A stretch of 64,000 bases of DNA from a virus (taxonomy: Duplodnaviria > Caudoviricetes). Each line of letters starts with the position of its first letter. Position 1 is the first letter of the stretch. Position numbers and translations under genes: made by a program. The stretch spans positions 25,374 through 89,373 of the IMG/VR virus record IMGVR_UViG_3300014204_000010; one strand, given 5' to 3'. The notes under the pieces are model-generated. The model ran no database searches. It worked only from the letters and a program-made list of their open reading frames with translations, and was not told where the DNA came from. Positions 4,524 to 63,634 of this stretch are shown in pieces.

Positions 4524-5621
4524 ATGGGCTTGATCAAGAAAAGACCAGATGATCAGCCAGGGTCAACCAACGAGGACATACTCCGCGAACAAGCGGGGTA
4601 TGTCCAAGAGGTTGAGAAGGCTATAGCGGAACCCACCGACAATGAAATTGTTTCTTTACTGAACCGCAGAGTAGAAGTCAAGCAGGTTATCTCTACAGGA
4701 TCCACTTTGTTAGATTTGAGTATTTGCGGAGAAGTGATTAGGGGCGGGGGCATCCCCGGTGGGTTATTAGTCGAAATTTACGGGAGAGCAGGGTTGGGTA
4801 AAACTGCCATCCTATCAGAAATATGTGCCTCCGCCCAGAGCAATGGGGGTAAGGTCCGTTTTACCGATCCTGAAGCCCGTCTTAACAAGGAGTACACCCG
4901 GATTTATGGAGTTGACTTATCCAAAAAGTTTGAGTATTACCGACCAGACACCGTAAAGGAACTGTTCAATGATTATTTGACCCCTTGGGAAACAAATACC
5001 GATAGTATAAATGTCTTTGCTTCGGATTCCATAGCAGCTTTATCCACTGAAATGGAGATGGAAGAGGAAGACAAACGTGGTCAGCAGCGGGCTAAAGACT
5101 TCTCCCAAGGATTGAGGAAGAATGCCAGAAGCATCGTTGACAAGAATATCCTGATGATCTTTACCAACCAGGTAAGAGCAGGGGAGAGAGGTGACATCAC
5201 CCCAGGAGGGATGGGTATACCGTTCTATGCTTCCATCCGATTAGCAGTAAAACAACCAATGTTAGACCATTTTGTAAAGAAGAGTAAAAACATAGGAGGA
5301 TCAAAGCGAGAGGAAACCATCGGAATAAAGAGTGAAATAACCGTAGTTAAAAACTCCGTAGGAATCTCCTATAGGAAATGCCCCATCTACATCATGAATA
5401 ATTACGGTGTGGACGATCTTCGGGCAAATCTTCAGTACTACAAGGAGATGATGGGGCAAAAATCCTATGATGTCATTGACAGAACCTATATCTCCATAAT
5501 TGATGCCATTCATTACATAGAAGATCACAACCTGGAAGAGAAATTAAGAGAACGGACTATTGATACTTGGGAAATGATTTTTCGGGAGTTCCAGGAAGTT
5601 AGAAAACCCAAAAAACGCTAA
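4524..5621 (+). CDS. recA: RecA/UvsX-like recombinase
   Basis: ISTGSTLLDL, VEIYGRAGLGKT (Walker A), DPEARL, DSIAAL, IFTNQVR, TPGGMGIPFYASIRL, VVKN motifs. Confidence 0.92.
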   Translation: MGLIKKRPDDQPGSTNEDILREQAGYVQEVEKAIAEPTDNEIVSLLNRRVEVKQVISTGSTLLDLSICGEVIRGGGIPGGLLVEIYGRAGLGKTAILSEICASAQSNGGKVRFTDPEARLNKEYTRIYGVDLSKKFEYYRPDTVKELFNDYLTPWETNTDSINVFASDSIAALSTEMEMEEEDKRGQQRAKDFSQGLRKNARSIVDKNILMIFTNQVRAGERGDITPGGMGIPFYASIRLAVKQPMLDHFVKKSKNIGGSKREETIGIKSEITVVKNSVGISYRKCPIYIMNNYGVDDLRANLQYYKEMMGQKSYDVIDRTYISIIDAIHYIEDHNLEEKLRERTIDTWEMIFREFQEVRKPKKR

Positions 5622-23475: not shown

Positions 23476-26400
23476 GGGATAACCTCATTCTCGCTAATTC
23501 TGTTTCCAGTCTCTTTATCTGTTGCCTGGTGGTTTGTGGGTTACCAACTACTTTCAAGGGAACAGCTTCATTCCCGACCTGTAGATTCAAAGTGAATACT
23601 TCCGAGAGCTGTCGGACAATTCCTCCCTGAGCAAAGTTCTGTGTAGGAGCTTTAAAGTTTGGTACAGAGAAGGTTTTAAGGTTGTTTATGAAATGGAAGA
23701 AACCTTCACCAAGCATCTGCACTACACCCTTTCGAACGACAAATTCTCCCGGGGTAAGATTTGCGGGAACTGAATCAGTATCACCGGTTCCGGGGACATC
23801 TCCACCTTCTCCGAACTGATATGGAATACCGAATCCTGTGAATCCTCCGAAAACGGGTTCTTGCCCTTCTTTAACATACTTAGTCACTACGGTGAAGACA
23901 GCCCTCATACCATTGATTTTATTAAATAAATCGTTCATTCTGGTCTCGACAGAAGCAATCATGGTGGAAAGAGAAGTCATACCCGTTCCGTCACTCCCCA
24001 TAAAATGCACTATAAAGTTAGCACTCTTTGCGGATATAGCAGATGCCAGGTTTTCAAATCTCTTCTTCATGTCGTCGATTAAAGGAGAAAGCATTTTTGC
24101 ACCTTCTCCAGCATCTCCTTTAAGAGCAAAGACAGCTTTGAAGTCCGTTTTCCCTACTTCATCACAAAGTTTACGGAAGGAGTTTTGCGTTTCCGTAATC
24201 TTCAGGGATAGAGATTTCTTCTCTGTACCGTCAGCACCTTCAAAGTAGACAACATAGCTAGGAGGTTTCTCGACAAGCTGTGTCTGGAAGGATGCCAAGG
24301 TTTTCATTACTTCGTTTATGGTATTGGTGAGTGTATCTACAGGAGAAGCCTTACCTAAAATCCTTATGACAATCGCAAACTTATCTCCCCTGTTGCTTTC
24401 GTCAATGGCAGTCAGTAACCGGTTCAACTGAGCCAGAGCCGAGTCAATATTGATTGCTACGGTCAATTCCTTAGCTAGTCTCTCGGCAACATCGTTGTAT
24501 TTGGCCATCAAGGTGTCGATAGTCTTCTCAATTCCCGACATCTTGGACCTTGAAGCATCTGCGGTAGACTGGGCTATATCCACCAGTTTCTTAGTAGCTG
24601 CCTCTTGAGCATTTATTAACTGCCCTATAAAACCGACTCTTGCATTCTTGGTGGCTTCTGCATCCATGACCTCCTTACCTTCAGCATCCTTCTTCATGAC
24701 CGTCAGATTTCCGATCATTCCAGATGCCTTATTGAAGTAATCTTGTGCAGAAGCTACCTTGACCTTTGCAGCATCAAGGGTTAGACTTTTATCGGTTTCA
24801 TTCAGTTGCTTCCAACCAGCACCTATGATAGACTGAATTTCCCGTTCTTTGTCGGCTCTTTGTTGCTCAGAGTCCATTGTCAACCGAAGGGCTTCTCGTC
24901 TTTGTCCTTCTAAGTCTTCCTTGGTTTTAGTCAAAGACCTTTCGGCGTTTTCAATTTCCTTTAAGGCTGCAATGTACTCACTTTTATACCGTTGACCTTC
25001 GGCAATCTTACCATCTATAAGACCTTTGTATTTAACTAGGTCATCTTTGTAAATGGCTGCAAGCTTCTCGGCATTCTCTTGTTCCAAGGCAGCCATCATG
25101 TACTTCTTATTTTCCCCGATTATCTGGGTTTGTTTTTCAAGAAACTCCTTTTTAGCGGCATATACTCTGTTCCAAGCAGCAATCTCCTTGACGGTAGCCT
25201 CTTCAATCATTATCTGGCTTTGCTTGTAGTAGTCGTCTTCAAGTCGGTACTTCTCCATCAAGAAGTTAGTCTGATTAAGGATAGAAGTCTCCGCATGGGA
25301 TATTTCCTGATTCTTTCGAAGCTCAAGAGCTTGTAATTGGGCTTCGGAAGCTGACTTCAGCAGTTTGGCTTCGTCCTGATACATCTTGTCCATCATGGAT
25401 AAGGCTTTTTCAACCATCTTAGCTCTGGATTCCAGAAGCTTATTGAAGTGATCATCAAATACCTTCTCCTTCTCGGCAAGAAGGAGCTGTTCATCCCCGG
25501 TTTCTTTTCTTAAGGTATCGACTGCCTTCTTGGCTGCTTTCTCAGCCAAAGCAGCTTGCTGGAGGACAAAACCCTGACCCTTAATATCCTGAGCCGCATA
25601 ATACTCTTGCCATTTAGCCCCTAGAGCGAATAAGGAATCAAACTGTTTCTGTTGGTAGTCGGACATCCCTGCTTTTAAGGATGCTACCATCTTATCGTTC
25701 AATTCCACAATGTTCTTGACGTTATTGGCATACTCCCCTTGGGGAAGGGAATCTAGGAGTTTTTGTCTCAGTTCCTTAGAAGAATTGATAATAACGGAGG
25801 CAGTTTCCTGATAGATGCCAGCCGATACTCTGTATTGATTGTTAAACATCTGTTGGGCGGCGTAATTGTCTCTACCCTCTTTTGTTAAAGCCGAGAAGGT
25901 TATCTTTAGATTGGTAACAGCCTCTGTATAAGCTGAAGTCTCCATTCCCGCCAGAGACAAAAGCAACTTATAGGGTTTAAGTAAATCCATTACAGAGGAG
26001 ACAGTCGTACCCCATTGAACAAGAAGACCTCTGTCCTCATTCAAGTAATCAGAATAGAGTTTAAGGGACTTTGCGGCATTATCGTATTCCTTAACTAAAT
26101 TCTGGATGGCATCAACAGCCGATCGGGTAGCCATCTTCTCATATTTAGCCGATACTTCCGTAAGAAGACCGGCTTGGGCTTCTAAATTGCCGTTAAACCG
26201 CAGCATTTGGGAAGAAAGTTCAGGGAATGTGTCCTTAACCTGTCGTAAAACTGCCAGATAGTCGTCGGTGATTATCTCTCCTTTACTCTGACGATCATTC
26301 AAATCAAGGAGAGTTTTGGCGTACTCTACGGCTGATTTACTGTTTTCCGTATAAGTTATGGTGTTCTTCTGAAGAGTTTTTCCTAATTCCGCAGAGCTTG

Positions 26401-54300: not shown

Positions 54301-54356
54301 GCAGAGGGACACAGTGTAATGTGGTAATGCACTATGCTAGCTTCCCAAGGGCTAGC
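54301..54356 (+). ncRNA. degenerate twister ribozyme (copy 1)
   Basis: GCAGAGGG, weak P1 (CACA/TGTG), TAATGCAC, P4 GCTAGC/GCTAGC; loop is TTCCCAAGG instead of TCCCAAGT. Confidence 0.55.
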
Positions 54357-54387
54357 CTACTATTAATACATGGAAGGTCGGAAGGTT

Positions 54388-54445
54388 GCAGAGGGGAGCC
54401 ATGATATGTGGCTCTAATGCACGATTCCCGTCCCAAGTCGGGAAT
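54388..54445 (+). ncRNA. twister ribozyme, permuted (P5-type opening), copy 2
   Basis: GCA-GAGGG-P1(GAGCCA/TGGCTC)-TAA-TGC-AC-P4(ATTCCCG/CGGGAAT, loop TCCCAAGT); predicted cut U54415|A54416. Confidence 0.9.
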
Positions 54446-54467
54446 ATGTCTTATAAAGGAGGAAAGA

Positions 54468-54596
54468 GTGGAAATTATTGTCAAGAATAGATGCTTGCAA
54501 TGGTTAACCAAGTTCATCCCTTACTGGCTTGTAAAGGAAGGTAATTTGGTTAAGGTTCGTTACGGTAAACTGTTTGCCACTAAGATCACATTCTAA
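54468..54596 (+). CDS. small early protein (42 aa)
   Basis: GTG 54468 after AAAGGAGG, in frame with track ORF 54408-54596. Confidence 0.55.
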   Translation: MEIIVKNRCLQWLTKFIPYWLVKEGNLVKVRYGKLFATKITF

Positions 54597-54621
54597 CTGA
54601 AAAGGACAAAGGAGGAAAGAG

Positions 54622-54999
54622 ATGGCTGATGTTCATTTGATTGAACCGCATGAGCAACCGGTGGAGCAAACACGATCGGTACAGTACTCAAAATTGGAAC
54701 TCATTCTTTCGGTTAAGAATGAGGAAGAGGAGACAGTCAAAGATGTTCTGGATATCATTGAGCTGGAGGCTAAAGCTCTCAATGACATGTTGGAAACGGT
54801 TGATGGTAATCCTCATCGACTCACCGTCATCACAGACACAAATGGTTTCAAGGACGAATTCTTGGTGGTAACGTCCAATATTTTCAGCTTTCGAGAGATT
54901 TCCGAGATTCTGGTTAGGATGACGGAAAGTATCGCCGTAGCATCGGCAAACACGTTCTTCACGGAACGCAAAATCAAGTGGGAAGAAATTGCACAGTAG
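54622..54999 (+). CDS. early hypothetical acidic protein
   Basis: 125 aa, SD AAGGAGG. Confidence 0.75.
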   Translation: MADVHLIEPHEQPVEQTRSVQYSKLELILSVKNEEEETVKDVLDIIELEAKALNDMLETVDGNPHRLTVITDTNGFKDEFLVVTSNIFSFREISEILVRMTESIAVASANTFFTERKIKWEEIAQ

Positions 55000-55005
55000 A
55001 GCATG

Positions 55006-55064
55006 GCAGAGGGAGACCCGAGCAATCGGGTCTTAATGCACATATCCCGTCCCAAGTCGGGATA
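55006..55064 (+). ncRNA. twister ribozyme copy 3
   Basis: P1 AGACCCGA/TCGGGTCT with GCAA tetraloop; P4 TATCCCG/CGGGATA; cut U55034|A55035. Confidence 0.92.
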
Positions 55065-55089
55065 ATAAAACTTAAGGAGGGAAGAGAGT

Positions 55090-55917
55090 ATGGAAAAGGA
55101 AAGCGTAAGAAATGCTGAAATCTACCGTCTAAAGATGGTAGAAAATAAGAGTAACTCGGAAATTGCTAAGGTGTATGGCATCTCCCCGGTGAGGGTCGCT
55201 CAGATAATCTGGGACATCTCGGAAAGCGAGTCAAAAGGTAGAGTTGCAGGTCTTCATCCCTTCCCATCTCAGTGGGAAGAACATATCCTGATCAATACTC
55301 GGGAGATAAACGTCCTGACGAGAAAAGGAATTAAGACTCTGAAGGAACTCACGACTTACACGATCAAGGAACTTCGGGGACTCAAGAATGCTGGACCGAA
55401 ATCATTCGGCAGTCTCCAAGAGAAGCTTGAGGAACTCGGTTATTACATTGCTGGTACTCAGCCAGAAATCAAGCTGAGGCAGGATGACATCGTTTACCTA
55501 CTGATGCAAAAATTAAAGGATCACGCCACTTCTTGTAAGAAGGGTACATACAATCAGTCCGATCCGACAGCTTACGAGAAAGTAACCAGTAAGCTCTTTC
55601 TCCAGTATGGATTCAGCTTCCCCATAGTATCGGAGGATGAAGAGCCAGAACTTTTTGATGACTTCTGTCCCGATCCTGAGACTGTTATCATCCAAGCAAA
55701 CGACTGTACATGGGGAATCAACTTCACCATTAAAGCTTCGAATGGTAAACATGTCGGTTACTGGTCAAGAGAATCAACCGGAGCTGATGGTAAATGGACG
55801 GGATGCTCACCGGAGTTTATCCCCGTCATCACACGATTGTTCCTTGGAGGAACTAGGGAACCGAGTGAGAATGACATAGAAGACCCGTACAGACGGGAAA
55901 TTGATCTTAACAAGTAG
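55090..55917 (+). CDS. HTH plus RNA polymerase alpha-CTD-like domain protein
   Basis: N-terminal sigma-4-like HTH (NSEIAKVYGISPVRVAQII); then NTREINVLTRKGIKTLKELTTYTIKELRGLKNAGPKS, matching the alpha-CTD pattern. Confidence 0.75.
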   Translation: MEKESVRNAEIYRLKMVENKSNSEIAKVYGISPVRVAQIIWDISESESKGRVAGLHPFPSQWEEHILINTREINVLTRKGIKTLKELTTYTIKELRGLKNAGPKSFGSLQEKLEELGYYIAGTQPEIKLRQDDIVYLLMQKLKDHATSCKKGTYNQSDPTAYEKVTSKLFLQYGFSFPIVSEDEEPELFDDFCPDPETVIIQANDCTWGINFTIKASNGKHVGYWSRESTGADGKWTGCSPEFIPVITRLFLGGTREPSENDIEDPYRREIDLNK

Positions 55918-55925
55918 GTAGAAAG

Positions 55926-55982
55926 GCAGAGGGCAGCCGTTCTAGGGACGGCTGTAATGCACGAAACCGGTCCCAAGTCCGG
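55926..55982 (+). ncRNA. twister ribozyme copy 4
   Basis: P1 CAGCCGT/ACGGCTG; P4 CCGG/CCGG; cut U55955|A55956. Confidence 0.88.
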
Positions 55983-56009
55983 ATTAACAAAGAAGGGAGA
56001 GAAGAGAGT

Positions 56010-56360
56010 ATGGAAGATAAATCGAAACCTAAGACCACGATTATTCTTGCTACCAGATTAAAGTTTACACTTATTATCCGAAATGAGTCCGGGGAGGCAG
56101 GAGAAGACATCATCAATGGTGTAACGGCTTTCGTGAGGAAGCTTAATTACCTCTTTGAAAGCCAAAAGTGTGCGCCACTAGATGTTACTGTGGAGATTGA
56201 TTCTTGTAAACTGGAGGATGAATTGTCGGCTTCCGTTACTGACTTGCGAGGATTCAGTCTGTTTGCCAAACACATACCGCATTTGCTTGACAGTATCACC
56301 GGATCGTCGTCTAACTTCTCATTTACGGGTAAGAAAATCCGTATTGAGAATTTGGAGTAA
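56010..56360 (+). CDS. early hypothetical protein
   Basis: 116 aa directly after ribozyme copy 4. Confidence 0.7.
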   Translation: MEDKSKPKTTIILATRLKFTLIIRNESGEAGEDIINGVTAFVRKLNYLFESQKCAPLDVTVEIDSCKLEDELSASVTDLRGFSLFAKHIPHLLDSITGSSSNFSFTGKKIRIENLE

Positions 56361-56378
56361 GGGTCGGAAATAAACGAT

Positions 56379-56434
56379 GCAGAGGGGAGCCATGATATGT
56401 GGCTCTAATGCACGGCACAGTCCCAAGTCTGTGC
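56379..56434 (+). ncRNA. twister ribozyme copy 5
   Basis: P1 identical to copy 2; P4 GCACAG/CTGTGC; cut U56406|A56407. Confidence 0.92.
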
Positions 56435-56462
56435 AAAAACTAAACTAAGGAGGAAAGAGAGT

Positions 56463-57290
56463 ATGAAAAAGACAGCAAAAGGATTGGTTAAAAAAGCGGG
56501 TAAGGTCGAAGAGAAGAATCAGGTTAAGGATGCTGCGGAAGTAACTGCTGAGGATAAAGCAGTTGCATTGGCTCCGGTAGCTGAAGTTGCTCCGGTAGCT
56601 GAAGTTGCTCCGGTAGTTGATGCTTCGGTAGCTGAAGTTGCTCCGGTAGTTGAAGCTGCACCGGTTTCCGAAGCTGTGCAAGCTGAAGCTACACCGGTAG
56701 CTGAAGTTGCTCCGGTAGTTGATGCTCCGGTGAGACCCGAGATTCCTGCTGATTTCTGCTTAGAGCAGGATTTTTGGGCAGGCAATGAAGCTTGCTTTGA
56801 CCCGGAGAACAAAGACTGTAAGGATTGTGCTGAAAACTATGCACAAGCCTTCGAGGCATGCCAGAAGAGACATGAATTTCTGAAGGCATTGGCCAAGAAG
56901 TCTCCGGCAATGAAGCGAAAGTCTCCTCTTCTCAGTAAGAAACCTCAGTCCATCATGATTGACGATATGATCAAGTTGAGTATGCCCTTGGTGGATATGG
57001 TCGCTAAGTTGTCGGTGGATGAGTTCAACAGTGTGGAGAAGGACGCTCGTAAACGTCTTGACAGTCACATCAAGGCTATCAGGACGGGAACTTACTGCAG
57101 GGCGGAGGCTATGCGTCCGTTCATCGGTTATCTTGAAGCTCCGGCAGCAACGACAGCTCCAGCTGCTTCCGCTCCGAAAGCAGCGGATCCGAAAGCGGTA
57201 GCTCCGAAAGCTAAAGCAGCAAAACCCAAAGCTGCTTCGGCAACGACACTGAAACCGAAGGCAGTGGAAGCGGCATCACCTGCTGCTTAG
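56463..57290 (+). CDS. early protein with APVAEV repeats, central Cys-rich domain and histone-H1-like AKP tail
   Basis: 18-bp GCTCCGGTAGCTGAAGTT tandem units at about 56571-56730; CFDPENKDCKDC; C-terminal APKAKAAKPKAA. Confidence 0.8.
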   Translation: MKKTAKGLVKKAGKVEEKNQVKDAAEVTAEDKAVALAPVAEVAPVAEVAPVVDASVAEVAPVVEAAPVSEAVQAEATPVAEVAPVVDAPVRPEIPADFCLEQDFWAGNEACFDPENKDCKDCAENYAQAFEACQKRHEFLKALAKKSPAMKRKSPLLSKKPQSIMIDDMIKLSMPLVDMVAKLSVDEFNSVEKDARKRLDSHIKAIRTGTYCRAEAMRPFIGYLEAPAATTAPAASAPKAADPKAVAPKAKAAKPKAASATTLKPKAVEAASPAA

Positions 57291-57295
57291 AAATT

Positions 57296-57358
57296 GCAGA
57301 GGGCTCGGGGACAACTGATGTCCCCGAGTAATGCACAGCCTGAGTCCCAAGTCTCAGG
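57296..57358 (+). ncRNA. twister ribozyme copy 6
   Basis: P1 CTCGGGGACA/TGTCCCCGAG; P4 CCTGAG/CTCAGG; cut U57329|A57330. Confidence 0.92.
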
Positions 57359-57387
57359 TAAATAAACTAAAGGAGGAAAGAGAGAAG

Positions 57388-58119
57388 ATGACCAAGGAAG
57401 ACATCATCAACAAGGTTCTGAAGTTACTGCAATTGGGAGATGCCAACAAGAACGAGAACATTCACCAGAGGGAAGCAGCCATGAACAAAGCTGCAAAGCT
57501 CATGGCGGAACATGCTGTAAGCTTTGCAGACCTCAGGGAAGGTAGGGTAAAAGAAAGTCCCTTCACCCATGTTGTCATTGACGGTTCTTCCATCAACCCT
57601 AAAGTCTGGGAACTGATACTCTGTACCAGTATAGCAAAAGTGTTCGATTGCTCTTCCGTCAACTCTTTAAAACCATCATTTCAGATGCACGTCCTCGGTG
57701 AAAAAAGTGACGTGGAGCTGGCTGTGTTCTTCTATACTTATCTCAGCAGATCGGTAAGGAACATGGTGAGAGTCCACACCACCAAAGAAAAGCTTCTCAA
57801 AGAAGGATATCTTGGAAACGAGAGTGTGTTTCGGGACTCATATGCAAACGGTATTACGGAGAAAATCCGATCCAGACTGGAGGACCTGTACTCAAAGAGG
57901 GAAGCTTTTATTCCCTCTACGGGTAAGGAACTCATGGTTGTAAAAATGAACGAGGTTTCAAGCTATGTAAAATCTGTATTCCCCAATCTAACTAAAGTCA
58001 CCAAGACCATGGTCAGAGACGGTCATGCTTACATGAAAGGTCTGAATGACGGGGAAAAAGTGAACATCTCTCGGCCCATTGCAGGCAATGGAGCAACACA
58101 GGAAGGAGCTATCGAATGA
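57388..58119 (+). CDS. DUF2786-domain protein
   Basis: IINKVLKLLQLG....IHQREAAMNKAAKLMAEH N-terminal motif; ATG 57388 after AAAGGAGG. Confidence 0.75.
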   Translation: MTKEDIINKVLKLLQLGDANKNENIHQREAAMNKAAKLMAEHAVSFADLREGRVKESPFTHVVIDGSSINPKVWELILCTSIAKVFDCSSVNSLKPSFQMHVLGEKSDVELAVFFYTYLSRSVRNMVRVHTTKEKLLKEGYLGNESVFRDSYANGITEKIRSRLEDLYSKREAFIPSTGKELMVVKMNEVSSYVKSVFPNLTKVTKTMVRDGHAYMKGLNDGEKVNISRPIAGNGATQEGAIE

Positions 58120-58262
58120 TGTACCTTATGATTTCCCATATGATCGTTTTGATTCTCGGAATCATCGTCGGGTGGACAATGAGAAATTGCATCCGACGGA
58201 GGCTAGCATCAGCCCGCTTGATTGATTTTGACAGCTGGTTTGCTGCTGGAAAAAGGAAATAG
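58116..58262 (+). CDS. small single-TM protein (48 aa, not in ORF track)
   Basis: MMYLMISHMIVLILGIIVGWTMRNC...GKRK*; ATGA overlap with the upstream gene; its TAG overlaps ribozyme copy 7. Confidence 0.6.
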   Translation: MMYLMISHMIVLILGIIVGWTMRNCIRRRLASARLIDFDSWFAAGKRK

Positions 58263-58319
58263 CAGAGGGGACGGGGAGAAATCCCCGTCTAATGCACAGC
58301 CTGAGTCCCAAGTCTCAGG
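58262..58319 (+). ncRNA. twister ribozyme copy 7
   Basis: P1 GACGGGGA/TCCCCGTC with GAAA tetraloop; P4 identical to copy 6; cut U58290|A58291. Confidence 0.92.
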
Positions 58320-58346
58320 AAACCTAATTAAAGGAGGAAAGAGAGT

Positions 58347-58934
58347 ATGAAACAGGATTTTGATAAGGTCTTAAACTCGGTGGTTCTGGAAGAGTATGGT
58401 GGGTGTAATCCCAGTAAAGATCCGATAATCACGCTCAAAGCTCGGATTGAGGAAGGTGCAATCCTTGTCTTTCTCGTAGGCAAATGGCGACCCATAAGGT
58501 CTTATTTCGGTAGAAAGTCCAGCATAACGAACAAAGTTATACTGAAGGATATGAGGGACATTATCCGAAGAAACACCGGATGGAGTAAGACTGCCCTCAA
58601 AGATAAACCTATTGAGTTCAAATGGGTTTATCTCGGTTCTAAGGACTTTCCAATAGTCCTTAATAATTGGTCGGTAATCAGCTTTAGAAATTCTCCATTC
58701 GACGCTCCGGAGCTTCATCAAACAGCCCTTGCTGGCACCACCGTAGAGCATCCGGTTCTGGGCAAAGATTACCGTGTACGAACTACGGGTATCCAAGAAG
58801 TCGATGGTCTTCTTGCCAAGACTAAGCATCATTGGTACAAGCTGGGGTCGGTAGATCCTATGTATAGGATTTATCTGAAAGACCACAACATTCCGTTCGA
58901 TGAGAAAAATCCAATCAAGCTCAAAACTAAGTAG
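58347..58934 (+). CDS. early hypothetical protein
   Basis: 195 aa after the canonical RBS; C-terminal GTTVEHP...RTTGI...YKLG motif. Confidence 0.75.
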   Translation: MKQDFDKVLNSVVLEEYGGCNPSKDPIITLKARIEEGAILVFLVGKWRPIRSYFGRKSSITNKVILKDMRDIIRRNTGWSKTALKDKPIEFKWVYLGSKDFPIVLNNWSVISFRNSPFDAPELHQTALAGTTVEHPVLGKDYRVRTTGIQEVDGLLAKTKHHWYKLGSVDPMYRIYLKDHNIPFDEKNPIKLKTK

Positions 58935-58990
58935 CAGAGGGGACGGGGATTCTCCCCGTCTAATGCACACAGTCCGTCCCAAGTCGGACT
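58934..58990 (+). ncRNA. twister ribozyme copy 8
   Basis: P1 GACGGGGA/TCCCCGTC; P4 AGTCCG/CGGACT; cut U58961|A58962. Confidence 0.92.
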
Positions 58991-59012
58991 AATAACTTAA
59001 AGGAGGAAAGAG

Positions 59013-59309
59013 ATGGCAGAAACAAAGATTCAGTGGATCGTTGAGGCTGATCCTACCGGAAAGTCTCTCTTTGAGAACTTGATCCGCAGCCGCAACGACG
59101 AGAAGCTGGCGGAGAACATTCTGAACCTTCTGAGTTGGGCAAAACCTGACATCATGAAAGAAAGTCCTCTTGCCGTCCTGTTTGAGCTAATCTACAATTC
59201 TAACTGGGAGGATGCGGAGCATACAATAATAGACTTGTCTGAGGACAAGAAATGGATCACTATCGAATCCCGTTGTCCAGAAGTTTTCGTTCATTTGGGG
59301 GAGAAATAG
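59013..59309 (+). CDS. early hypothetical acidic protein
   Basis: 98 aa between ribozyme copies 8 and 9. Confidence 0.75.
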   Translation: MAETKIQWIVEADPTGKSLFENLIRSRNDEKLAENILNLLSWAKPDIMKESPLAVLFELIYNSNWEDAEHTIIDLSEDKKWITIESRCPEVFVHLGEK

Positions 59310-59363
59310 CAGAGGGTGGCTGCTTTGGCAGCCATAATGCACGGCACAGTCCCAAGTCTGTGC
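59309..59363 (+). ncRNA. twister ribozyme copy 9
   Basis: P1 TGGCTGC/GCAGCCA; P4 GCACAG/CTGTGC; cut U59335|A59336. Confidence 0.92.
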
Positions 59364-59391
59364 AAAAACTAAACTAAGGAGGAAAGAGAGT

Positions 59392-60258
59392 ATGGAATTA
59401 GGAGCATTTGTCCAGGAAAGAAGTAGTCAGGAACGTCGGGGTATCCAGGAAAGATACCCGGATATTAGATTTCCTCAACCTCAATTAGAGCCGGTCTTCT
59501 ATGGTCGTCGTGAGAAATTCAGGATAGACGGCAAGAAAGCCATAGTCGATCAAGCCGACAAAGACCTTGTTTTCGGTATATGTAGTGAGGATTACAAGGT
59601 TGTTCATTATGAAGACCTCATAATGATGACCGAAGAAGTGATGGCAAAACAAGGGTTCATGGTGAAGATGAACCCCAGAATCCTCTCAAACGGAGGAAAG
59701 TTCGTGTTGTCTCTCCAGTTTCCCGATTACGGAGAAAGTATCAGAAAAGGGGATGACATCTTCCCAAAGATGGACATCCAGTCCAGTTATGATCTAAAAT
59801 GGAAGCTCACAGGCAGATTTGGTGCTATTCAGCTCAGATGCACCAATGGCTGTGGAACATGGAAAATGTTCAAAAGGTTCGCTCGTAGGCATCTCCAGTC
59901 ACTGATAGTCTCAGAATTGGGAGACACCATCAGTGAAGCTTTGCCAATCTTTACGGAACAAGCAAAGCTCTGGAAGAAGTGGGCACACATGAAAGTACCC
60001 GTTCTGGCTTACGAAGAAATGTGGGCTGATCTCCCATTCAGTCCGGCACAAAAAGAAAAGATTCAGTTACTCCCCGAAATTGGCACCGGTCTCGCAATAG
60101 ATGGTGCCCTGAAGAGGGGAAATCTTGATCTTTGGACTCTTAACTCCATTTTAACTCAGTATGCAACCCACGAACTTAAATCCGATCTCAAAATGGTTGA
60201 AATTGAACCGGTGATTGCAAAAGTCATGGAAGATACTTACGAAAAACTAGCGGCATAG
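59392..60258 (+). CDS. DUF932-family protein
   Basis: FGICSEDYKVVHYED, NGGKF, SSYD, RFGAIQLRCTNG...RRH and LWTLNSILTQYATH motifs. Confidence 0.75.
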   Translation: MELGAFVQERSSQERRGIQERYPDIRFPQPQLEPVFYGRREKFRIDGKKAIVDQADKDLVFGICSEDYKVVHYEDLIMMTEEVMAKQGFMVKMNPRILSNGGKFVLSLQFPDYGESIRKGDDIFPKMDIQSSYDLKWKLTGRFGAIQLRCTNGCGTWKMFKRFARRHLQSLIVSELGDTISEALPIFTEQAKLWKKWAHMKVPVLAYEEMWADLPFSPAQKEKIQLLPEIGTGLAIDGALKRGNLDLWTLNSILTQYATHELKSDLKMVEIEPVIAKVMEDTYEKLAA

Positions 60259-60279
60259 AAACTTCAGGAGGGGGAACTT

Positions 60280-60504
60280 TTGAAATCAAACCCGGTAAAA
60301 TCTATCACTTTGCAAGAAGCCCAAAAAGAACTGGAGAAGGCTGAGCAAAAAGTGAAAGACGGTAATGCTTCACATCTGGATCGGTATGAGTTAATGGAAC
60401 TTGCAGCCCATGTTGCTATCTGGCAAACGATAAGGAATCATGTGTTCGTAGGCAAGATGGTGACCATGGATCTAGTGACAGGTACCCTTAAACTTTGGGA
60501 TTAA
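60280..60504 (+). CDS. early hypothetical protein
   Basis: 74 aa, TTG start after AGGAGGGG. Confidence 0.6.
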   Translation: MKSNPVKSITLQEAQKELEKAEQKVKDGNASHLDRYELMELAAHVAIWQTIRNHVFVGKMVTMDLVTGTLKLWD

Positions 60505-60507
60505 AAA

Positions 60508-60572
60508 GCAGAGGGAGTGAGCGGGGGAGAAATCCCGCTCATTTAATGCACGGCACAGTCCCAAGTCTGTGC
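60508..60572 (+). ncRNA. twister ribozyme copy 10
   Basis: P1 AGTGAGCGGG/CCCGCTCATT (one G-U pair); P4 GCACAG/CTGTGC; cut U60544|A60545. Confidence 0.92.
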
Positions 60573-60600
60573 AAAAACTAAACTAAGGAGGAAAGAGAGT

Positions 60601-61026
60601 ATGTCCAAAACAAAGGAAGCATATGTAGAAGAAATCCTGGTTAGGTTGGCAACAAACCATTCCCCAGACTCTCACATCTACAAAACAGTGGAATCGGGTC
60701 TGAGACTTATGAGTAAGGAATTTGTAGACGCTCTTTGGTCCCTGGTGATATGTATGGCCGAAAGTACCACTGTCAAGGATAATATTAAACTGTTTGCGAA
60801 AACCATTGAGGAGGCTGCAAGAATCCGAGAGGAATCTTGGCATCAACAAAACCACTTTTACAAGAAAAACATAGAGACTGCTGTTCGGGAGGCTGTAGGA
60901 AATACTGAATTGGACTTCAGATTTGCACCAATTATTGAGCTTCTTCTTTCATGTGTCTGGAATGATGCTCTGGAATGGGCAGAAGAGATTAATCAAGAAA
61001 AAGCATCGTCCCAATCGCAAAAGTAG
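60601..61026 (+). CDS. early hypothetical helical protein
   Basis: 141 aa after the canonical RBS. Confidence 0.75.
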   Translation: MSKTKEAYVEEILVRLATNHSPDSHIYKTVESGLRLMSKEFVDALWSLVICMAESTTVKDNIKLFAKTIEEAARIREESWHQQNHFYKKNIETAVREAVGNTELDFRFAPIIELLLSCVWNDALEWAEEINQEKASSQSQK

Positions 61027-61145
61027 TTGAATGAAGATTTACTCGTCTTTTGCGATGGGCAGAGCTGTCCGTCTCTCTCAGAAGCGGACAAAGCTTGTTC
61101 TTGCTAGCATCTAAGCAGAAGACAAAGGGCCTTAAAGGGGGAATT

Positions 61146-61325
61146 ATGATCTCCGAGGATGTATGCAAAGAGGATTGTCGTAAGTTTTATGTACCCGAAC
61201 CCAAGATGACTTGCCCAAACGGTCACACGGGTAGAGTTTACCATGTAAGAACGGGTAAGCTCAATAAGGATTGGTACGAATGTGAAACCTGTTTGATTCA
61301 GTGGGGAGGAACCGATGAGGGGTAA
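61146..61325 (+). CDS. small Zn-ribbon-like protein
   Basis: ATG 61146 after AAGGGGG; CPNGH...YECETC. Confidence 0.55.
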   Translation: MISEDVCKEDCRKFYVPEPKMTCPNGHTGRVYHVRTGKLNKDWYECETCLIQWGGTDEG

Positions 61326-61698
61326 ATTCTACGGTAATATTCTGCGGATTGAAGTAGATACCCATGAAGAGAAGTTAGACGCTGGGGAAGGTCTTCAATG
61401 GCTTCCCTGTGATCTCTGTGGGGAGCTACAAAAGGTAAGTTTGGACCTAACATCCTTTGTCTGTACACCATGTAAAGCAGCCAAAGGAGCTTCTGTCTAT
61501 ATAGAGGAAGAAGATGAGGATGAGGGGAACGTCTTTTGTAGAAGTGAAGATTCCTTGGAATCTTTTCTGAAAGACGGAGGTTGGGAATCAATAGAAGACT
61601 TCGAAGAGGAAACCGGTGTTGCCCGGGAGTTACTTCTCAGACACTGGTTTTGTGTCGTTCATGGTCGAGTGTACATCAAACCTATTCCAGACTTGTAG
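61315..61698 (+). CDS. acidic protein with CxxC motifs
   Basis: CDLCG...CTPCK; acidic C-terminal half. Confidence 0.65.
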   Translation: MRGKFYGNILRIEVDTHEEKLDAGEGLQWLPCDLCGELQKVSLDLTSFVCTPCKAAKGASVYIEEEDEDEGNVFCRSEDSLESFLKDGGWESIEDFEEETGVARELLLRHWFCVVHGRVYIKPIPDL

Positions 61699-61714
61699 GA
61701 AAGGAGGTGAGCTA

Positions 61715-61849
61715 TTGTTCCAAATTATTGGTTTTAGTTTCCTGCTTATCATTCTCCTGTTAGGATCTATTTTCAGACCTAATAGACTTCCTCAAAACAG
61801 GGAAATCAAAAAACCACCACACCCGTTGTATTTTGTAAAGAAAAAGTAG
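61715..61849 (+). CDS. small single-TM protein
   Basis: TTG 61715 after AGGAGG, in frame with track ORF 61616-61849; its TAG overlaps ribozyme copy 11. Confidence 0.55.
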   Translation: MFQIIGFSFLLIILLLGSIFRPNRLPQNREIKKPPHPLYFVKKK

Positions 61850-61904
61850 CAGAGGGCAGGCACTCCGGTGCCTGTAATGCACAGAGACAGTCCCAAGTCT
61901 GTCT
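61849..61904 (+). ncRNA. twister ribozyme copy 11
   Basis: P1 CAGGCAC/GTGCCTG with cUCCGg tetraloop; P4 AGACAG/CTGTCT; cut U61875|A61876. Confidence 0.92.
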
Positions 61905-61930
61905 AACCTAAACTAAGGAGGAAAGAGAGT

Positions 61931-62341
61931 ATGAAAGTAGTGCCGCATATCGTGTTACAGGTGAAAGAAACAGACGAACTTATACTTGTGTCAGGTCCTA
62001 ACGGATGGAACCTAAGTAGGATTTCCTTTGGTTGTCAGTTGCACACTGAACCACCACTGCTGGGCTTAAACGATGTTACTTACCCGGAAGAAGTCGTGTT
62101 CACTATACTCTGGTCCGGTGGCCAGGATGGCTCTATATCTGCAACCGTAGTGGAAACAGTGGTAGATGGGGAATCGAGGGTGTTGTACTCCAAGCGAAAT
62201 ATTCGGGCAGGATATGTTCTTCCTGTTGAGTTTATAGCTGAGGTTATAAACAAAGAGATTGATTCCTGGAATCGCTCCCGTAGGAGGGCAGATGAGTTTG
62301 CCAAAAAGGTAGGGATGACACTACACGAAGGTTCTTGGTAG
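61931..62341 (+). CDS. early hypothetical protein
   Basis: 136 aa after the canonical RBS. Confidence 0.7.
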   Translation: MKVVPHIVLQVKETDELILVSGPNGWNLSRISFGCQLHTEPPLLGLNDVTYPEEVVFTILWSGGQDGSISATVVETVVDGESRVLYSKRNIRAGYVLPVEFIAEVINKEIDSWNRSRRRADEFAKKVGMTLHEGSW

Positions 62342-62626
62342 ATGGAGGATACGAAAATGCCGAAGATTAAGGTTTATCTGAATGGTACTGACAAGAATCC
62401 GTTCGAAAAGATGGGATTGTTACAGAATCCGTTCCCGCAGCTTGCCGAAGCGGAAAGCAACGAAGCAATCTTCCGACTACAGAAGCTGGGAGGACCGCCA
62501 ATTCCTAAGAATGAGGCGGAGAAATACATCAGAGAAACCCTGACAGGATTTAGCCAGGAATTTGTTGATCTGTGTGTGAAGAATTTTGAGGTGGGCAAGT
62601 ATGTCGAATTTACAGTCACATGGTAG
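62342..62626 (+). CDS. early hypothetical protein
   Basis: 94 aa, abuts the previous stop. Confidence 0.65.
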   Translation: MEDTKMPKIKVYLNGTDKNPFEKMGLLQNPFPQLAEAESNEAIFRLQKLGGPPIPKNEAEKYIRETLTGFSQEFVDLCVKNFEVGKYVEFTVTW

Positions 62627-62945
62627 GAAGTACAAAGGTTATAAAATCGTTCATGCCACGGAACGAGATGATGAAGTTCTGTCCATTGCTGATCATTCTT
62701 TCACCATCAAACTTCAAAAGGCTTATAGGTGCTTCCCCGGAGCTGGTTTGTTTCTGGGTTTAACCAAACAATACTGTCTGGACTACTTCTCTATAGCCGG
62801 GGAAGAGGGAGCATTACCCGAATTGCTTCTTACCTATGAATTTAGGGAGAAAGATGTTATCAATGGTGACCCAACATATCAGAATGGAGAGGTACAAGTC
62901 AGGTGGGCTAAGTACCTGGCAAAAGAGAAAGTTGAAGGCAAATAG
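62601..62945 (+). CDS. early hypothetical protein
   Basis: ATG 62601 after GAGG; its TAG overlaps ribozyme copy 12. Confidence 0.65.
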   Translation: MSNLQSHGRKYKGYKIVHATERDDEVLSIADHSFTIKLQKAYRCFPGAGLFLGLTKQYCLDYFSIAGEEGALPELLLTYEFREKDVINGDPTYQNGEVQVRWAKYLAKEKVEGK

Positions 62946-63001
62946 CAGAGGGGTCGGGAGGTAACTCCCGACTAATGCACGGCACAGTCCCAAGTCTGTG
63001 T
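62945..63001 (+). ncRNA. twister ribozyme copy 12
   Basis: P1 GTCGGGAG/CTCCCGAC with GUAA tetraloop; P4 GCACAG/CTGTGT; cut U62973|A62974. Confidence 0.92.
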
Positions 63002-63029
63002 AAACACAAATTAAAGGAGGAAAGAGAGT

Positions 63030-63578
63030 ATGGGAAAAGATCAAAAAATTAAGACAGAAGTAAATCCTGTTCCCAAGATTGCGGAAGCCTTAGTGGGAAA
63101 AACTATGACTGTAAATCTCGGAGGAAAGAAATATGATGTCCACTTCAGAACATCATTCTACACCCTTTCTAAATCCCCCGCTATCGAATTGGTTCTCGCA
63201 GATGGAGAACCGTTTGGAACGCTTACAGTCAATATTCCAGAGGCACTCGAAGTCCATAAGGAAAAGCTTGGTGACATGGAAATCGTCGTCAAGACCTGGT
63301 CAGAGAATGAAGCTCTGGCTGAAGCAGCCTTAAAAACGGGTCTCTTTGAAGACACGGGTCGCCGAATCTCGACGGGCTTTGTGCTTGCCCAAATATGGAG
63401 AGTGAAAGCTGTAGCAACAAATATGCGTCATGAAGGAAAGATTATCGTAACCTTCTCCAGTAAAACAACCGAAGAAGAAAAGGTAAAGATACTCTTTGCC
63501 ATCGAGCAGGTTCTCAATAGTTCGGTGAGTACCATCATTTACCGCTTCACTAACGCTGGCATCCGTGTTCATCTGTAG
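63030..63578 (+). CDS. DUF4313-like early protein
   Basis: GEPFGTLTVNIP...VKTWSENE...GLFEDTG...STGFV motif. Confidence 0.55.
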   Translation: MGKDQKIKTEVNPVPKIAEALVGKTMTVNLGGKKYDVHFRTSFYTLSKSPAIELVLADGEPFGTLTVNIPEALEVHKEKLGDMEIVVKTWSENEALAEAALKTGLFEDTGRRISTGFVLAQIWRVKAVATNMRHEGKIIVTFSSKTTEEEKVKILFAIEQVLNSSVSTIIYRFTNAGIRVHL

Positions 63579-63634
63579 CAGAGGGGTCGGGAGGTAACTC
63601 CCGACTAATGCACATCTCGGTCCCAAGTCCGAGA
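63578..63634 (+). ncRNA. twister ribozyme copy 13
   Basis: P1 identical to copy 12; P4 TCTCGG/CCGAGA; cut U63606|A63607. Confidence 0.92.

Follow-up and report, generated by a model that had tools for sequence, protein, structure and literature searches.

Mosaic halves in an array of predicted type-P5 twister ribozymes from a phage early region: probable short-patch exchange between repeats

The early region of a tailed phage (Duplodnaviria; Caudoviricetes) represented by IMG/VR record IMGVR_UViG_3300014204_000010 contains an array of putative self-cleaving ribozymes of the type-P5 twister family, in which the same left and right halves recur in different combinations from copy to copy. How did these combinations arise, and does the point at which the halves meet, an octamer (TAATGCAC) overlapping the predicted scissile bond, reveal anything of the mechanism? 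The DNA considered here, hereafter the window, is the last 64 kb (64,000 nt; positions 25,374 to 89,373) of this complete 89,373-bp record, which displays a 123-bp terminal repeat. The mosaic is probably explained by ectopic short-patch gene conversion or template switching among the repeats, each of which joins a ribozyme to a ribosome-binding site (RBS), and the underlying process is a real but fairly ordinary homogenising of repeats, most likely at the DNA level.

The repeat unit and its uncoupled halves

Fourteen copies of the ribozyme are present in the complete 89-kb phage as direct repeats of one unit, spread over an early region of ~10.5 kb at the boundaries of early genes (Table 1). 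Twelve sites of the window, all on the + strand between 54387 and 63632, match the Rfam Twister-P5 model RF02684 with 45.7-57.1 bits (gathering score 37.6), a further degenerate copy lies within the window and one more is located just beyond its end. From 5' to 3' the unit comprises the upstream stop codon, GCAGAGGG, the P1 hairpin, TAATGCAC, the P4 hairpin with the loop GTCCCAAGTC, an A-rich leader and the RBS block AAGGAGGAAAGAGAGTATG. The stop codon of the upstream open reading frame (ORF) adjoins or overlaps the first nucleotides of the ribozyme at each copy, while the terminal block AAGGAGGAAAGAG(AGTATG) occurs 12 times genome-wide, every time inside the array. The twister architecture consists of stems P1, P2 and P4 and the pseudoknots T1 and T2 (PMC5408937), and 13 copies contain the defining features of Twister-P5, namely P2, the P1 hairpin, the UAA cleavage-site loop, P4 with its conserved L4 loop and both pseudoknots. 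From the Rfam alignment and this established architecture, the scissile bond is predicted at the U-A step of UAAUGCAC. Copy 1, probably a ribozyme relic judging from its sequence, gave no RF02684 match even at E<=1; it is followed after ~30 nt by copy 2 with no ORF between them (54301-54442), an arrangement suggesting that a cassette was once lost here.

Exact-match runs anchored on TAATGCAC define the shared tracts, and they reproduce to the nucleotide all coordinates of an earlier examination of the window from its letters alone (the sequence-only reading), which had claimed that halves are shuffled between copies and that identity always switches within the octamer. The switch maps to TAATGCAC within 1 nt in all 10 sharing pairs: beyond the octamer the run continues for 0-1 nt, and none of the pairs has both sides in common. 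For P1 the identity reaches 100% in copies 2/5 and 12/13, 80% in copies 7/8, which have both stem strands in common and a different P1 loop, and 75% in copies 3/14. Similarly, P4 is 100% identical among copies 5, 9 and 10 and 95% identical between these and copy 12, with 96% for copies 6/7 and 83% for copies 2/3. The unshared half of the sharing pairs remains at background identity (39-67% over full segments, 26-64% over the variable parts only). Since the variable parts span only ~20 nt, incongruence of the halves was assessed by four-gamete and Mantel-type tests instead of trees; five pairs of left and right classes fail the four-gamete test, and left and right distances among copies are uncorrelated (r=-0.14). 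The shuffling first noticed by eye is thus borne out, its form being a zig-zag chain of sharing that runs c14-c3-c2-c5-{c9,c10,c12}-c13, plus c6-c7-c8.

Each shared block has a second junction. Left-half identity ends 1-2 nt upstream of GCAGAGGG, the preceding 30 nt being at background (38-59%), and right-half identity ends either at the ATG or at the end of P4, the latter in copy 12 and in copies 6/7. The genes that follow copies 5, 9 and 10 are unrelated, as are those preceding copies 2/5 and copies 12/13. An all-versus-all BLASTP of the array proteins recovered two pairs only, g2b~g4 (24% identity, E 1e-9) and, weakly, g10~g13, and shared halves correspond to neither. The distant paralogues of the first pair are the small genes 54622-54999 and 56010-56360, the former with an RBS block 5' of it but no ribozyme. 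As the blocks are two-ended and the neighbouring genes unrelated, the shared unit is a patch and not a cassette. Moreover, TAATGCAC is identical in 14/14 copies and nothing else separates the two variable hairpins, which means that a junction between P1 and P4 can map nowhere else. The switch point is therefore largely forced, and the overlap with the predicted scissile bond, which the sequence-only reading had taken as a mechanistic clue, is mechanistically uninformative.

Collapsed or mis-joined repeats could give false hybrids during assembly, and short contigs do break in the repeats: L084 (58897-63608) ends in copy 13, and L085 (59365-60573) starts in the repeat of copy 9 and stops in that of copy 10. 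These two contigs of the same phage come from other samples (JGI 3300035208, Logan SRR18595299). An artefact is nonetheless improbable in the extreme, as the array is the same at 100% identity in two independent full-length assemblies (IMG/VR, 89,373 bp; ENA, 89,391 bp) and in two fragments, and the k-mer of 141 indicated by the ENA contig name k141_2421659 exceeds the repeats, which measure at most 60 nt. In addition, the same mosaic recurs in five other genomes, left and right sharing being uncorrelated in all six arrays examined.

Table 1. Ribozyme copies, shared tracts and other features, with positions in the window unless stated otherwise.
Feature	Position	Strand	Score or length	Description
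Copy 1	54301..54356	+		Degenerate, twister-like; GCAGAGGG and TAATGCAC present, loop TTCCCAAGG instead of GTCCCAAGTC
Copy 2	54387..54442	+	49.1 bits	Twister-P5; P1 of copy 5, P4 83% like copy 3
Copy 3	55005..55061	+	54.3 bits	Twister-P5; P1 75% like copy 14, with two compensatory pair changes
Copy 4	55925..55982	+	54.5 bits	Twister-P5; left and right halves both unique
Copy 5	56378..56432	+	45.7 bits	Twister-P5; hybrid of copy 2 P1 with P4 and leader of copies 9 and 10
Copy 6	57295..57356	+	49.5 bits	Twister-P5; P4 common to copy 7
Copy 7	58261..58317	+	53.3 bits	Twister-P5; hybrid of copy 6 P4 and copy 8 P1 stem
Copy 8	58933..58988	+	49.6 bits	Twister-P5
Copy 9	59308..59361	+	48.1 bits	Twister-P5; right half of copies 5 and 10
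Copy 10	60507..60570	+	48.6 bits	Twister-P5; right half of copies 5 and 9
Copy 11	61848..61902	+	55.2 bits	Twister-P5
Copy 12	62944..62999	+	54.9 bits	Twister-P5; hybrid of copy 13 P1 and P4 of copies 5/9/10
Copy 13	63577..63632	+	57.1 bits	Twister-P5
Copy 14	genome 939-995, outside window		58 bits	Beyond the contig join, 1.24 kb after copy 13
Right-half tract from TAATGCAC to ATG, spanning P4, leader and RBS	56406..56465 (copy 5) = 59335-59394 (copy 9) = 60544-60603 (copy 10)	+	60 nt	Exact; blastn self-matches
First part of the same tract in copy 12	62973-63000		28 nt	First 28 nt of the right-half tract of copies 5/9/10
Right-half (P4) tract	57329..57358 (copy 6) = 58290-58319 (copy 7)	+	30 nt	Exact
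Left-half tract (GCAGAGGG, P1, TAATGCAC)	54387..54423 (copy 2) = 56378-56414 (copy 5)	+	37 nt	Exact
Left-half tract	62943..62980 (copy 12) = 63576-63613 (copy 13)	+	38 nt	Exact
RecA homologue	4638..5411	+	114.5 bits	PF00154, E 1.8e-34; 367-aa open frame
Stem-loop	53667-53706		17-bp stem	Perfect stem-loop just 5' of the array (terminator scan)
RNA polymerase alpha C-terminal-domain-like gene	55090-55917			PF03118
DUF2786/DUF7168 gene	57388-58119			Backbone gene in relatives
DUF932 gene	59392-60258			PF06067; backbone gene in relatives
275-aa gene (F2)	56463-57290		275 aa	Backbone gene in relatives

Exchange and cassette turnover in related phages

Three other assemblies of the phage are 100% identical in DNA and thus without strain variation. 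A megablast of the array against INPHARED gave no match, an IMG/VR peptide-pattern search with the 288-aa array gene found no relative, and the closest non-self homologue of that gene in a protein search shows 54% identity. Relatives were provided by 63 IMG/VR stretches with the same core pattern, from which near-identical pairs were drawn. The most informative pair is L014 and L054, which are 99.65% identical over 7.1 kb. Of their 25 differences, 10 cluster in a single orthologous ribozyme, within the ~30 nt of its P4 stem and leader (Poisson P ~2e-21); the left half with its P1, TAATGCACAA, the RBS and the downstream gene are all unchanged there. The new right half of L014 matches, with identity over 28 nt, the right half of a copy located 1.25 kb downstream in the same genome, and both versions of the ribozyme score 55 bits as Twister-P5. 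The pair thus records a short-patch intragenomic conversion caught between sister genomes. The features of gene conversion are found together in these data: tracts bounded on both sides by unrelated sequence, segments with incompatible histories and, in L014 versus L054, a new version that matches a paralogue.

The variable hairpin parts evolve fast in other pairs as well. In close pairs they differ by 7-18%, the neighbouring genes by 0.2-4% and the cores by 0%, the exceptions among four such comparisons being one with right halves at 2.8% versus genes at 3.1% and another with 3 core differences (5.8%). Pairs sharing halves make up 3.1% (left) and 4.3% (right) within genomes and 0.11% and 0.45% between genomes, a 10-30x excess that establishes concerted evolution. 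In G001 and L069, which are ~95% identical, 6/21 nt of an orthologous P1 differ, and the L069 version equals the P1 of another G001 copy.

Identical hairpins could also have been re-selected convergently without any recombination, either for protein binding or for optimal stability of mRNA ends. Such a process would suit CACCGACGAAAGTCGGTG, an 18-nt GAAA-tetraloop P1 hairpin present in four contigs (L081, which is G004, L042, L055 and L063) and combined in G004 with three core classes. It is made very unlikely by the many unrelated hairpins found in each genome and by identity that extends up to 60 nt, into the unstructured leader, when the chance of an identical 19-nt hairpin is ~1e-8 per pair. 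Furthermore, the new half of L014 is that of a paralogue 1.25 kb away on a 99.7% identical background.

In the two cases mapped in this phage group, whole cassettes were gained or lost at a different site of the unit. Relative to L014, L054 carries an extra 199-aa ORF with a complete ribozyme and leader, and the junction is the 16-nt RBS block AAAGGAGAAAGAGAGA, beyond which identity between the two drops to 94.6%. Similarly, G001 and L069 differ by an ORF-plus-ribozyme cassette whose junction lies in AAAAGGAGAA, a 10-nt RBS junction. Early-gene content and order also differ among the relatives, with accessory genes at varying places on a conserved backbone. In L047 and L053, 1.98 kb at 100% identity is followed by a wholly different P1 and unrelated downstream genes. 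This pair was considered as a junction in the ribozyme and rejected, as the recent crossover falls within the gene, 70 nt or more upstream; it was counted as no more than P1 turnover and replacement of a gene at the ATG.

Reciprocal or unequal crossovers inside TAATGCAC would join halves and, at the same time, move, duplicate or delete cassettes, leaving the mosaic as a scar. Such events would find an obvious substrate in the direct repeats that mark each gene boundary, as shown for the promoter-early stem-loops (PeSLs) of phage T4 (PMC2839356), and both the different sites of the accessory genes on the conserved backbone and the topology of copy 7, with the right half of upstream copy 6 and the left half of downstream copy 8, suit unequal crossover. 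In contrast, copy 5 displays the opposite topology, its left half coming from upstream and its right half from downstream. Each shared tract stops again at GCAGAGGG, the ATG or the end of P4 and the genes beside shared halves are unrelated, so that no cassette moved together with a half, while both mapped cassette indels include a whole ribozyme and have their junctions at the RBS block. Crossover within the octamer is accordingly an unlikely source of the mosaic, and as a general explanation unequal crossover was rejected on the topology of copy 5 and the non-paralogous flanking genes. The proposal that the elements act as recombination or gene-conversion joints allowing early genes to be gained, lost or reordered as cassettes is therefore retained in part: conversion takes place among copies and early-gene content and order do vary in relatives, but the flanking genes are not co-transferred with the halves and the core is not borne out as the cassette breakpoint, since the two indels mapped to the nucleotide join at AAAGGAGAAAGAGAGA or AAAAGGAGAA.

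A patch-copying model and its limits

In the proposed mechanism, each unit would cleave the early polycistronic RNA at the U-A step of UAAUGCAC, so that the upstream message would end in the P1 hairpin and the downstream message would carry, from its 5'-OH end onwards, the P4 hairpin and then a strong RBS. At the DNA level, the invariant blocks of the 14 units would serve as microhomologies through which stretches of ~20-50 nt are copied from unit to unit by ectopic short-patch gene conversion or replicative template switching, and we infer that phage RecA or host functions may take part. The two halves touch only through invariant P2 and T1 nucleotides, so any left half would suit any right half. 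A patch replacing a whole hairpin would be neutral and survive, whereas a patch ending within a stem would break its pairing and be lost; selection of this kind would confine the visible junctions to the invariant cores, including TAATGCAC. Gain and loss of cassettes would use the same unit, with recombination in both mapped cases at the RBS block, the longest of the invariant blocks.

A RecA homologue (Table 1) is the only recombination enzyme found in the genome. Searches of the complete genome did not find a tyrosine (PF00589) or serine (PF00239) recombinase, nor an HNH (PF01844), HNH_3 (PF13392) or GIY-YIG (PF01541) domain. The dedicated recombinase of an integron-like system and the HNH or GIY-YIG gene of homing-endonuclease co-conversion are thus both absent from the genome. 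The same searches found neither reverse transcriptase (PF00078) nor RtcB (PF01139), which extends to the complete genome the earlier remark that no reverse transcriptase is visible in the window.

These negative searches bear on an RNA route raised by the sequence-only reading, in which a left fragment with a 2',3'-cyclic phosphate would be ligated, through the reverse reaction or RtcB, to the 5'-OH right fragment of another copy and the product copied into DNA. Small nucleolytic ribozymes do catalyse both scission and reverse ligation (PMC5408937), and the junction is compatible with the scissile bond. However, ligation would bring along the whole downstream RNA and its gene, whereas right-half tracts stop at the ATG or the end of P4, left-half tracts stop at GCAGAGGG and the downstream gene of the L014/L054 ribozyme is unchanged. 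Patches with two junctions, in a complete genome where reverse transcriptase and RtcB were not found, render this route exceedingly improbable.

Several observations weigh against copying of patches between units as proposed here. The donor and recipient evidence comes from relatives and not from this genome. Flanks of 8-19 nt are short for RecA-type exchange, and those of 8-10 nt fall below the length it normally needs; replicative template switching may be as good a candidate. The enrichment of adjacent copies among the sharing pairs (5/12 vs 14% expected, P=0.02) speaks for the model, but its test rests on non-independent pairs. Finally, copies 5, 12 and 13 of G004 (L081) join the P1 CACCGACGAAAGTCGGTG to three different core classes, a mixture that is not easily explained, as the patch model fits it only with very short flanks or later mutation of the core.

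A stronger version, in which the ribozyme-RBS unit is a selected recombination scaffold, the ribozyme counterpart of PeSL or integron cassettes, whose hairpins stall replication and promote template switching, is quite unlikely. If it were true, the turnover of early genes (probably for host takeover or anti-defence) and the diversification of message-end hairpins in these phages would outpace change in the remaining genome, possibly via packaged mini-circles.

Modular architecture, gene context and known systems

The pairing scheme of the ribozyme indicates why its halves may be exchanged. P2 (GCA/UGC), formed by the nucleotides flanking P1, is present in 14/14 copies, and relatives display the compensated versions GUG/CAC and GGG/CCC. 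In T1, the GGG of the L1 sequence GAGGG pairs with the CCC of the L4 loop UCCC, again as GGG/CCC in 14/14 copies. Across five related phage records with 7-20 copies each, T1 covaries between the halves (GAGAG/UCUC, GAAGG/CCU, GAGGA/UUCC, GACGG/CCG and GAUGG/CCA) and is compensated in 21 of the 22 non-standard copies. For T2, the AC following UAAUGC pairs with the loop GU in 72/81 copies, with GC/GC and CC/GG as variants. P1 and P4 are each self-contained hairpins and T1 is the only cross-half pairing that varies; with GGG/CCC in all 14 copies, every chimera of the array is therefore predicted to function.

Several T1 classes (GGG/CCC, GAG/CUC, AGG/CCU, GGA/UCC, CGG/CCG and UGG/CCA) coexist in one array among the relatives G001, G002, G004 and G005 (L077-L082). 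G004 also holds the P2 variants GUG/CAC and GGG/CCC, and in G001 identical P4 stems are paired with different T1 classes. Neutral drift via G-U intermediates, or selection, for instance against mis-pairing between neighbouring ribozymes, are candidate causes of this diversity.

Promoter-like sites are not enriched in the array (13 vs 15.9 expected from shuffled sequence), which fits a single long array transcript. The stem-loop just 5' of the array may bound the preceding transcription unit. Precomputed Pfam matches were available for three of the array genes, and the DUF2786/DUF7168, DUF932 and 275-aa genes form a backbone conserved across relatives (Table 1).

Twister and hammerhead ribozymes have been reported near phage genes, with a proposed role in processing polycistronic messages (PMC6765202). 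The copies described here agree with type-P5 twisters (RF02684; PMC5408937) in all sequence and pairing criteria checked, including covariation of T1 in relatives. They differ in T2, which is A-U/C-G here (AC with GU) versus GC/GC in the Rfam consensus, in their arrangement as a 14-member array and in the upstream stop codon overlapping the ribozyme start; self-cleavage is here a prediction from sequence.

In its evolutionary behaviour the array is closest to the PeSL cassettes of T4-type phages, in which small early genes are shuffled through recombination between repeated promoter and terminator motifs (Arbiol et al. 2010, PMC2839356; Comeau et al. 2014, PMC4122927). In both systems a plastic region holds small, non-essential early genes whose borders carry direct repeats of a short conserved regulatory motif, and in both the indels between close relatives join within the motif, here in the relatives L054/L014 and L069/G001 and not in this genome. 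In contrast, the motif here is a putative self-cleaving ribozyme with an RBS block, whereas that of PeSLs is a sigma-70 promoter with a terminator stem-loop. The copies here also exchange internal hairpin modules, for which no description was found in the PeSL abstract consulted, and literature searches returned no paper in which ribozyme copies swap hairpins or halves.

The likeness to ectopic gene conversion and concerted evolution of dispersed repeats lies in the identical short tracts in unrelated contexts, the four-gamete failure, the greater similarity within than between genomes and the donor in the same genome. Unlike in those systems, the tracts here measure ~20-50 nt with flanks of only 8-19 nt, the converted units are the two hairpins of a putative catalytic RNA and the tract ends are apparently filtered by RNA pairing. 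Engineered ribozyme-separated polycistronic expression (pRAP, PMC9872166) similarly places a ribozyme between cistrons, followed by a standard RBS, to give one message per gene; unlike pRAP, the present array is natural and evolving, its standard parts being homogenised by recombination and not by design.

The analysis removes the attractive but unsupported idea of RNA-level shuffling at the scissile bond and, in practical terms, shows that repeats of 30-60 nt break short-read assemblies of such phages. A natural ribozyme array acts as a set of interchangeable parts: type-P5 twister hairpins appear freely swappable because their halves communicate only via a three-base pseudoknot, which covaries across the halves in relatives. 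For ribozyme biochemists the array is a ready-made natural series of chimeras, with a compatibility rule that can be tested, namely that the T1 triplet must match. For phage genomics it joins the PeSLs as a second case, this time without a promoter, in which gene-cassette indels start from a repeated regulatory element.

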